Source of the DNA: an uncultured Bacilli bacterium
Lineage (GTDB): Bacteria; Bacillota_I; Bacilli_A; RF39; UBA660
Assembly (NCBI GenBank): GCA_934130165.1
Contig: CAKOXO010000002.1
Span: forward strand, 192,412-256,411
Length of the DNA stretch: 64,000 nucleotides
Direction: 5' to 3'
Shown here: positions 29,398 through 31,170 of the stretch, piece after piece
How the letters are laid out: every line of letters begins with the position of its first letter
Position numbering within the stretch: the first letter of the stretch is position 1
Made by a program: the position numbers and the translations under genes
Notes under the pieces: generated by a model
What the model was told of the DNA's origin: nothing
Database searches by the model: none
The model's input: only the letters and a program-made list of their open reading frames with translations

Positions 29398-30285
29398 TTA
29401 TACAAATCGCCTTACTCCTAAAAATTTATGTTTTACTTTTTTCGGTGATCTATCATTGGTAATGCCCCATTTTTCACCTTTGGATTCTATCAATTTACCA
29501 TTTCCATCATATATTCCTACATGCCCACTGTATACCACTACGTCTCCAGCTTGAGCATTTTTTAAACCACCTTTAACTTTTTTACCTTGATTTGCCCAAT
29601 CATCTGATACAATTCTATTTCCATTATATAATTTTAAATCCTTTAGTATGGAATATACAAACCCTGAACAATCACAACCACTTGTTAGAGAAGTTCCTCC
29701 GCTTACATAGGGATTACCAACAAAATTTAAGGCATAATCAACTATTTTTTGTCCATTGCTAGGACTAGTTACACTAGTTGTTGTCCCTGCTGTAGAATTA
29801 TTACTATTACTATTATTTTCTGATTCTTCTTTATTTTTTGTTAACTTTTCCAAATCAGAATCGCTTATTTTATATTTAGAAATATCTATTACTTTTTTTC
29901 TTTTATCTTTTTTACTTATAACATCATATTTTACATTAGAATTCATTGTTTTAGCTATACCTTCAGCCGATTCCCAACATGCCGATAATTCAAAGCTATC
30001 TGGGATTATACTTAAAACCACATTAACAATAAGTGGAATAAAGAATACTACTAATGCTGCAATAAATTTATTTAATAGTGCTTTGGGTGATTTTTTATCA
30101 TCTGGTGATGCCATCATCTTTATCATTTGTATTGTTGCCATTACTAGTAATAAGATTGGTATTACTATTTGAATTATTGTTAGTGCATTTTTCATTATAT
30201 ATAAATACATTGCTATTCCATAATCACTACAACAACTACTTACATCTGTACTACATGTTGTTTCTAATATTTGAATATATTTCAT
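29398..30285 (-). CDS. NlpC/P60-family peptidoglycan hydrolase with N-terminal Cys-rich two-TM domain, tandem copy 1
   Basis: 295 aa. C-terminal catalytic Cys in GCDCSGFVY and His in SGHVGIYDG (NlpC/P60 triad). N-terminal TTCSTDVSSCCSDYG followed by two TM helices. S/T/N linker. Confidence 0.7.
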   Translation of the reverse strand: MKYIQILETTCSTDVSSCCSDYGIAMYLYIMKNALTIIQIVIPILLLVMATIQMIKMMASPDDKKSPKALLNKFIAALVVFFIPLIVNVVLSIIPDSFELSACWESAEGIAKTMNSNVKYDVISKKDKRKKVIDISKYKISDSDLEKLTKNKEESENNSNSNNSTAGTTTSVTSPSNGQKIVDYALNFVGNPYVSGGTSLTSGCDCSGFVYSILKDLKLYNGNRIVSDDWANQGKKVKGGLKNAQAGDVVVYSGHVGIYDGNGKLIESKGEKWGITNDRSPKKVKHKFLGVRRFV

Positions 30286-30303
30286 ATCTAACTACACCTC
30301 CAA

Positions 30304-31170
30304 TTAAACAAATCTTCTTACACCAAGTAATTTATGTGAGCTATTTTGAGGTGATCTATCATTAGTAATCCCCCATTTTCTTCCTTTTGCTTCTACCAAT
30401 TTTCCTTTACCATCATATATACCTACATGACCACTATACACCACTACATCCCCAGCTTGAGCATTACTTAAACCACCTTTAACTTTTGTACCTAATTTAT
30501 TCCAGTTAGATGAGGTTACATATCCTCCATTATAAGCACCTACATCTTTTAAAACTAAATAGACAAAATGAGAACAATCACAACCACTCGTTAGAGAAGA
30601 TCCACCCCATACATAAGGATTACCAACAAAATTTAAGGCATAGTCAACTATTTTCTGACCATCACTAGATGAAGTACTACTGGATGTTGATGTACTTCCG
30701 CTAGTACCAGTATCTTCTTTTTTTGTTAATATATCTAAATCTTTTTTACTAACTTTATATTTAGAAATATCTATTACTTTTTTCTTTTTCTTATCCGCTT
30801 TTACAACATCATACTGAACTTTTGAATTCATTGTTTTAGCTATACCTTCAGCCGATTCCCAACATGCCGATAATTCAAAGCTATCTGGGATTATACTTAA
30901 AACCACATTAACAATAAATGGAATAAAAAATACTACTAATGCTGCAATAAATTTATTTAATAGTGCTTTTGGTGACTTTTTATCATCTGGTGATGCCATC
31001 ATCTTTATCATTTGTATTGTTGCCATTACCAATAATAAGATTGGAATTGCTATTTGAATTATTGTTAGTGCATTTTTCATTATATATAAATACATTGCTA
31101 TTCCATAATCGCTACAACAACTACTTACGTCAGTACTACATGTTGTTTCTAATATTTGAATATACTTCAT
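30304..31170 (-). CDS. NlpC/P60-family peptidoglycan hydrolase with N-terminal Cys-rich two-TM domain, tandem copy 2
   Basis: 288 aa. The first ~115 codons are ~95% identical at nucleotide level to copy 1. C-terminal NlpC/P60 domain (GCDCSHFVY, SGHVGIYDG) is more diverged. Confidence 0.7.
   Translation of the reverse strand: MKYIQILETTCSTDVSSCCSDYGIAMYLYIMKNALTIIQIAIPILLLVMATIQMIKMMASPDDKKSPKALLNKFIAALVVFFIPFIVNVVLSIIPDSFELSACWESAEGIAKTMNSKVQYDVVKADKKKKKVIDISKYKVSKKDLDILTKKEDTGTSGSTSTSSSTSSSDGQKIVDYALNFVGNPYVWGGSSLTSGCDCSHFVYLVLKDVGAYNGGYVTSSNWNKLGTKVKGGLSNAQAGDVVVYSGHVGIYDGKGKLVEAKGRKWGITNDRSPQNSSHKLLGVRRFV

Follow-up and report, generated by a model that had tools for sequence, protein, structure and literature searches.

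Module-limited concerted evolution in tandem NlpC/P60 hydrolase genes of an uncultured gut Bacilli lineage

Two tandem genes for NlpC/P60-family hydrolases, here called gene A and gene B, lie in a 64,000-nt stretch of DNA from an uncultured Bacilli bacterium (contig CAKOXO010000002.1, positions 192,412-256,411 of the forward strand; this whole stretch is referred to as the window, and all positions are counted within it). Each gene encodes an N-terminal module with two transmembrane (TM) helices (N-module, aa 1-115) that is joined by a low-complexity linker to a catalytic domain (Table 1), and the two halves of the genes have different histories: one half of the protein evolves in concert within each genome, whereas the other evolves as ordinary orthologs do. 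We consider it likely that the two proteins are membrane-tethered D,L-endopeptidases that serve wall growth and whose shared anchor is subject to this concerted evolution. The host appears to belong to an uncultured, Bacilli- or Mollicutes-like gut lineage of low GC content (26%).

Different histories of the two gene halves

Genes A and B are separated by 18 nt, and their similarity begins exactly at the ATG; the sequences upstream of the two genes are, by reading, unrelated. In a global alignment 335 of the first 347 nt are identical (96.5%), close to the ~95% over the first ~350 nt that an earlier interpretation of this DNA, made from its letters alone (the sequence-only reading), had given, and the 12 differences comprise 10 synonymous and two non-synonymous changes (A41V and F85L). 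From nt 348 onwards identity falls abruptly to 48-90%, measured in 60-nt windows, with indels in the Ser/Thr/Asn-rich low-complexity linker and 76.6% nucleotide and 76% amino acid identity between the catalytic domains, so that the divergence of the 3' parts noted in the same reading is confirmed. The contrast between the gene halves is far beyond chance, both for all nucleotide differences (12/345 in the 5' tract against 83/354 in the catalytic half; Fisher's exact p = 1.5e-15) and for synonymous differences (10/70 against ~36/78; p = 3e-5). An Rfam scan of the whole window returned tRNA only and no RNA element that would account for the conserved 5' halves. In gene B the length of the Asn/Ser-rich linker is not the same in all strains, the encoded protein measuring 295 aa in the window and 301 aa in locus L002 (6886..7791), and this low-complexity tract appears to be prone to slippage.

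Non-synonymous (dN) and synonymous (dS) divergence along the pair, a comparison that had been suggested together with the sequence-only reading, was estimated by the Nei-Gojobori method in six genomes, with the N-module taken as codons 1-115. Within genomes, dS between A and B lies at 0.014-0.158 for the N-module, as against 0.52-1.38 for the catalytic domain (0.158 in the tract and 0.728 in the catalytic domain for the pair of the window). Between orthologous N-modules of different species dS reaches 0.4-2.0, values as high as those of the catalytic domain, and silent sites of the N-module are therefore not constrained as such. Neighbor-joining trees (200 bootstraps), calculated separately for the two domains, are in conflict with each other. 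The N-module tree groups paralogs by genome, with 100% bootstrap support for L087 A+B, L091 A+B, L095 A+B and the window with L002, whereas the catalytic domains group by type, with 91% for the A clade and 98% for the B clade. Since each type's catalytic domains form a clade that spans several species, the duplication into type A and type B is old and predates these species. Type-A catalytic domains cluster with those of single-copy relatives, which by this phylogeny makes gene A the ancestral-type and gene B the derived paralog, the grouping node having a bootstrap of only 55%.

The ends of the homogenised tract differ between strains. In the window, L004 and L006, the B alleles show 12 differences from A, carry B-type sequence at nt 351-418 and have a tract that ends at nt 347. 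The B alleles of L001, L002 and L005 are A-like up to ~nt 418, which suggests that A was the donor at least in these. Two further B alleles are mosaics: that of L003 contains a patch (nt 257-303) matching the A allele of another lineage, and that of L088 is A-like to ~nt 190 and L091-like beyond. Judged from these alleles, conversion is repeated and ongoing and is combined with recombination between strains. The gene conversion of the membrane domain that the sequence-only reading had put forward is strongly supported by the low within-genome dS, the conflict between the trees of the two halves and the strain-variable tract ends. The accompanying "diversification of the hydrolase domain" was overstated, as dN/dS of the catalytic domains is ~0.26 between paralogs within a genome and 0.11-0.35 between orthologs, as expected from old paralogs under purifying selection, and these estimates give no sign of positive selection on the catalytic domains.

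Two explanations that do without conversion have to be considered. A collapsed or duplicated repeat in the assembly, the possibility that the sequence-only reading had itself named as fatal to its proposal, can be excluded for practical purposes: gene A occurs on at least 11 independent contigs, the tandem pair is present in all six same-species loci inspected, which stem from different human-gut metagenome samples and different assemblers, the same layout returns on contigs of related species, and the copies are told apart by 12 fixed positions and by their different 3' halves. Hardly more tenable is a recent duplication followed by fast divergence of the 3' halves, with the 5' halves frozen by purifying selection. 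The N-module protein sequence is indeed strongly conserved throughout the family, but silent sites are homogenised as well within genomes, while they are free to diverge between genomes; the type clades span several species, whereas N-modules cluster by genome; and the tract ends vary among strains of one species. The incongruent trees of the two gene halves rule this scenario out.

In the gene conversion supported here, the 5' 350-420 nt, encoding the anchor, are overwritten repeatedly between the tandem copies, so that the anchors evolve in concert and the catalytic domains stay distinct. Why conversion should stop at the linker can plausibly be explained in two ways that do not exclude each other. 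Both anchors may have to fit the same partner, or each other; identity sufficient for recombination may be kept only in the conserved module, and the indel-rich linker may block extension of the tracts. Selection would act against conversions in which the catalytic domains lost what distinguishes them in function. The pattern resembles that of tufA/tufB and of pilin and opa cassettes in its homogenisation of silent sites within genomes, its incongruent trees and its mosaic tracts, and differs from them in that the tract is limited to one domain-encoding module of a two-domain gene. We regard it as a clear case of module-limited concerted evolution, with conversion tracts caught while segregating among strains in human gut metagenomes.

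A comparable observation was made with a different cargo domain. In L094 (4529..5980) a 130-aa module-only gene comes after a gene for a fusion of the module with Peptidase_C39_2 (348 aa), and codons 31-120 of the two are 100% identical at the nucleotide level, as would result from a very recent duplication or from conversion.

A predicted pilin-like hairpin joined to a papain-like hydrolase domain

The N-module consists of a Cys-containing N-terminal tail, in which the cluster TTCSTDVSSCCSDYG pointed out in the sequence-only reading is present, and of two hydrophobic helices, which hydropathy places at about aa 34-57 and 74-94, likewise in agreement with that reading. The loop between the helices contains five Lys and has a net charge of +3, while the N-tail (-1) and the segment after TM2 (-3) are negative; an N-out/C-out hairpin is predicted on account of these charges, with the hydrolase outside the cell. 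The AlphaFold2 (AF2) model places helices at aa 22-59, 66-93 and 97-114. Invariant throughout the family are C11, C18, C19, D21-Y22-G23, P43, P61, K73, F81, P84 and C103-W104. All four conserved cysteines lie on the predicted outer face, where disulfides between those of the tail (C11, C18, C19) and C103 after TM2 probably clamp the hairpin. The hairpin would hold the protein at the outer face of the membrane, its Lys-rich loop inside, and the flexible linker would extend the catalytic domain into the wall.

The catalytic domains match Pfam NLPC_P60 (PF00877, MEROPS C40) with 49.6 bits for gene A and 48.8 bits for gene B (cut-off 23). In an AF2 model built with 47 relatives, aa 171-288 are predicted with a pLDDT (predicted local distance difference test) above 90, and a Foldseek search against the PDB returned ~35 NlpC/P60 chains (E 3e-8 to 1e-4), the best being C. 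innocuum 8er5, C. difficile Acd24020, E. faecium SagA and B. subtilis LytE. Model and structural matches agree on the papain-like alpha+beta fold of NlpC/P60 enzymes. D198-C199-S200 and H248 are invariant in the 47 relatives, and in phmmer alignments C199 and H248 fall on the catalytic Cys and His residues of LytE and 8er5. By sequence, the proteins most likely cleave peptidoglycan stem peptides as D,L-endopeptidases, a predicted specificity. Beyond the family, the catalytic domains most similar to theirs (60-65% identity) are those of PcsB/CwlO-like coiled-coil hydrolases from Lachnospiraceae and other Clostridia. This is a much higher similarity than would be expected across classes and points either to a lateral transfer of the domain or to its very strong conservation.

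The sequence-only reading had also described the N-terminal domain as pilin-like and had proposed a domain search. Such a search gave matches below threshold only: T4SS_pilin (PF18895; T4SS, type IV secretion system) scored 19.6 bits with gene A and 23.1 bits with gene B (gathering score 26.6), and weak NCBIfam matches were obtained for the window proteins to pLS20_p028, Mbov_0396, MMCAP2_0566 and the pilin-like Mbov_0395, membrane families associated with conjugation. A profile of the module, run against 1.84 billion cluster representatives (50% identity clusters), retrieved 6424 proteins at E<=1e-3, of which 833 reached E<=1e-10, with lengths of 93-549 aa. PF18895 is matched at E<=1e-3 by 88 of the 149 top relatives (best 9.4e-10), and each of the four NCBIfam families by 22-46 of the same 149, always below thresholds. 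We accordingly keep the pilin likeness as one of remote homology, the N-module being, from these profile matches, a distant, sub-threshold relative of VirB2-like pilins of monoderm T4SS.

Among the 149 top relatives the partners of the module are nearly all active on peptidoglycan: NlpC/P60 in 44 proteins, Peptidase_C39_2 in 9, CHAP in 6, C70 and Amidase_5 in 4 each, M23, Amidase_3, S11 DD-carboxypeptidase and glucosaminidase in 2 each, and YkuD in one; many other proteins consist of the free module alone. What the module shares with VirB2/TrbC-like pilins (PF18895) is its make-up, a small membrane hairpin in which a basic loop joins two helices and whose two ends are predicted to lie outside, and a remote similarity of hidden Markov models. 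The differences are the sub-threshold score, the lack of a signal peptide and of a T4SS neighbourhood, the catalytic cargo at the C-terminus and the module's own motifs, CC-DYG and C-W. With more than 6000 cluster representatives, in which the hairpin carries many peptidoglycan-active enzymes, an exaptation of a pilin-like fold is likely, and a match to PF18895 should not be taken as evidence of a T4SS in genome annotation. For PF18895/T4SS_pilin only the detection of VirB2-like pilins in Patescibacteria turned up in the literature, and in the literature as far as covered, which was incomplete, there was no account of housekeeping hydrolases with a pilin-like anchor.

A conserved slot beside mltG and the probable function of the pair

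Genes A and B belong to a tight run of genes on one strand, which upstream of them encodes IreB, RuvX, DUF1292, MltG/YceG, an O-methyltransferase and a 262-aa protein and continues downstream with two U32 peptidases, an HD protein, GreA and trigger factor. Between 34.5 and 27.3 kb the genes are separated by 18-84 nt, with no terminator-like site between them, and across the locus GC content (26%) and GC skew show no shift. The same slot was found in every other locus fetched, down to relatives of only 36-42% identity (L096-L099). The pair thus sits in a vertically conserved housekeeping operon, as far as can be told from synteny, its operon structure being a prediction; co-transcription with mltG and the gene of the 262-aa protein is probable.

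Gene content within the slot varies. A and B are present in the window, L087, L088 and L091, and a single NlpC/P60 gene in L092 and L098; downstream of the single gene of L092 and of L093, tblastn revealed no decayed remnant of a second copy. In L095 type A has been duplicated independently, and MurT/GatD follows. The module-C39_2 fusion and module-only gene of L094 are accompanied by an NlpC/P60 gene, a module-only and an NlpC/P60 gene make up the slot in L103, and in L105 a module ORF (open reading frame), a stop codon and an Amidase_3 ORF stand beside an NlpC/P60 gene. In the latter locus (9001..10061) the module-only ORF (115 aa) ends 3 nt before the Amidase_3 ORF, and the linker at the N-terminus of the amidase, ENTFVSTTDKKPKSF, corresponds to that of the adjoining NlpC/P60 paralog, ENSTYVSTTDKKPQSF; it is apparently a module-amidase fusion split by a stop, which may reflect pseudogenisation, an error in the sequence or a programmed split. 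Locus L016 (CAZALI010000007.1) is binned as "uncultured Muribaculaceae", yet has a slot of Bacilli type (O-methyltransferase, RsiV-like protein, two module-NlpC/P60 genes, U32, U32, HD protein) and is probably a binning contaminant. In L100 a stand-alone module lies on a separate contig after a hibernation-factor gene, with uninformative neighbours. Distant relatives have genes with a prepilin-type N_methyl motif inside the slot and a Zeta_toxin gene after the U32 pair.

The 262-aa protein encoded upstream of gene A has an ectodomain with the RsiV-like (DUF4163/DUF3298) fold, but differs from RsiV, the anti-sigma-V factor and lysozyme receptor, in lacking any DUF3298 or DUF4163 Pfam match at E<=0.1, in its cytoplasmic tail of ~20 aa, which is too short for a typical anti-sigma domain, and in having no sigma factor gene adjacent to its own gene or elsewhere in the operon. 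It is a probable partner or regulator of the hydrolases, and this conserved neighbour may regulate autolysins in poorly known, thin-walled gut Bacilli.

The sequence-only reading had assigned the pair to the wall hydrolases of conjugative elements, i.e., to VirB1-like enzymes of a T4SS with a pilin-like anchor. Gram-positive conjugation systems carry membrane-anchored NlpC/P60 or CHAP hydrolases such as CwlT (ICEBs1), Orf14 (Tn916) and PrgK (pCF10), which share with A and B an N-terminal membrane anchor followed by the catalytic domain, and this background, together with the sub-threshold matches of the N-module to PF18895 and the four NCBIfam families, is what speaks for the assignment. We nevertheless regard it as highly improbable, and it is largely refuted by the conservation of the slot, which is a housekeeping one beside mltG in every relative examined, and by the lack of T4SS genes: Pfam scans of nearly all window ORFs of at least 90 aa found no VirB4, VirD4/coupling protein or other T4SS gene, nor did the 5-10 kb flanking each side of the related loci examined contain any. 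GC content and skew are uniform across the locus, the only mobile-element genes of the window form a block of their own beside a tRNA gene at a distance of ~19-25 kb, and the module had no match by tblastn in 72,556 PLSDB plasmids, a search in which TM-rich queries perform weakly. CwlT, Orf14 and PrgK, moreover, reside in T4SS operons of mobile elements, are often bifunctional and have a single TM helix or a signal peptide, where the present proteins have a two-TM hairpin and a vertically inherited slot. Only slightly less improbable is that A and B are polymorphic effectors against neighbouring bacteria, in which recombination at the shared 5' module swaps "toxin" domains. The cargo of the slot varies by genome (two NlpC/P60 types, C39_2, Amidase_3 and free modules), a common N-module and linker would permit the exchange of cassettes, and the cargo domains of the family are lytic enzymes. 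However, the proteins are predicted to remain anchored in the membrane, no small immunity-like gene follows A and B, purifying selection acts on the catalytic domains, whose orthologs are conserved across species, and the operon partners are wall-synthesis genes (MltG everywhere, MurT/GatD in L095).

Less remote, if still unlikely, is that the VirB2-like module is a self-assembling membrane subunit co-opted from a conjugation pilin and independent of any T4SS, in which free and cargo-bearing modules co-assemble and display wall enzymes. They would form a hetero-oligomer or a short fibre at the membrane-wall interface, possibly gated by the RsiV-like protein, on which two types of NlpC/P60 domain, C39-like, amidase and other cargo would be displayed, and conversion would ensure that all subunits of a genome retain identical interfaces for assembly. 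The free modules that adjoin fused ones in L094 and L103 and the stop-separated module and amidase ORFs of L105 would fit such a structure, as would the identity over codons 31-120 of the free 130-aa module of L094 with the module of its C39_2 neighbour. A module that acts as a self-assembling, T4SS-independent scaffold for wall enzymes would, if true, add to the interest of the family.

The reading that we prefer is that of membrane-tethered growth hydrolases, which would remodel the wall close to the membrane as CwlO or LytE do. With the growth autolysins CwlO, LytE and PcsB, A and B have in common the NlpC/P60 (or CHAP) fold with its Cys-His core and a chromosomal, wall-related context with paralogs that may be partly redundant. 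They differ in targeting, which relies on a coiled coil that docks on FtsEX in CwlO and PcsB and on LysM repeats in LytE, and here on a two-TM pilin-like hairpin with a Cys cluster, and in the third catalytic residue. The latter is among several points that weigh against our reading: the third position of the proposed triad, a His in LytE, 8er5 and distant relatives, is occupied by E260, a polar and non-canonical residue. The AF2 confidence for the anchor is moderate (pLDDT 65-75), a scan of 27-35 kb for promoters and terminators was uninformative in this AT-rich DNA, with no excess of sites over shuffled sequence, and a role of the RsiV-like protein is proposed from its conserved adjacency and its fold. 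In the distant tandem pair of L016 third-position identity is only 0.4-0.7, without homogenisation of silent sites, and conversion is therefore clade-specific and not needed for function. Topology, disulfides, activity and specificity, operon structure and the part of the RsiV-like protein are all deduced from sequence or models.

Further features of the window

Table 1. Positions of the hydrolase genes, their domains and other features, counted within the window
Feature	Position	Strand	Description
Gene A	30304..31170	minus	288 aa; two-TM pilin-like N-module, low-complexity linker, NlpC/P60 (ORF list and Pfam)
Gene B	29398..30285	minus	295 aa; architecture as in gene A, longer Asn/Ser/Thr-rich linker (ORF list and Pfam)
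Homogenised tract, gene A	30824..31170	minus	nt 1-347: N-tail Cys cluster, TM1, positive loop, TM2, post-TM2 helix with C103-W104
Homogenised tract, gene B	29939..30285	minus	nt 1-347; evidence as for the tract of gene A
NlpC/P60 catalytic domain, gene A	30307..30660	minus	codons 171-288; proposed catalytic residues C199, H248, E260
NlpC/P60 catalytic domain, gene B	29401..29754	minus	codons 178-295; motifs DCSG, GHVGIY, IESKG as in gene A
Upstream partner gene (probable)	31210..31998	minus	262 aa; short cytoplasmic tail with conserved MGHSFKLE, TM aa 20-44, RsiV-like ectodomain
YrrM-like O-methyltransferase	32083..32688	minus	upstream flank; Pfam Methyltransf_3, E 1.1e-20
MltG/YceG	32676..33758	minus	upstream flank; Pfam YceG, E 2.7e-67
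Two U32 peptidase-family genes (YrrN/YrrO-like)	27296..29359	minus	downstream flank; Pfam Peptidase_U32
T2SSE-family ATPase	1749..3026		surface cluster
CpaB/RcpC-like protein (weak)	3059..3862		surface cluster
DUF5411 protein	3881..4324		surface cluster
1095-aa protein	4324..7611		surface cluster; no Pfam match
Sortase	7589..8347		surface cluster
Ig-like surface protein	8349..10157		surface cluster
Proteins of 519 and 420 aa			surface cluster; no matches
Large serine recombinase	50759..52498		mobile block
Queuosine-salvage protein	52502..53461		mobile block
IS3-type transposase pair	53520..54739		mobile block
Mob_Pre relaxase	55057..56292		mobile block

Downstream of the U32 pair, between it and the HD gene, a 132-aa ORF without Pfam match was noted on the minus strand (26864..27262). 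A gene of 129-132 aa, equally without Pfam match, takes the same position in close relatives and in L095, and does not occur in L092-L094 or more distant relatives.

The mobile-element genes mentioned above lie at 50052..56292, after a tRNA-Gly(tcc) gene, in a block where GC skew is reversed and which looks like a small integrated mobilisable element. At ~19 kb from the hydrolase pair, it is unrelated to it. At the other end of the window (60..12000) a cluster of pilus-like or surface genes was found, possibly a locus of Tad/Flp type or a sortase pilus locus. Proteins with a prepilin-type N_methyl motif recur in the window (18213..18623), in L096 (11728..12402) and in L105 (11864..14161).

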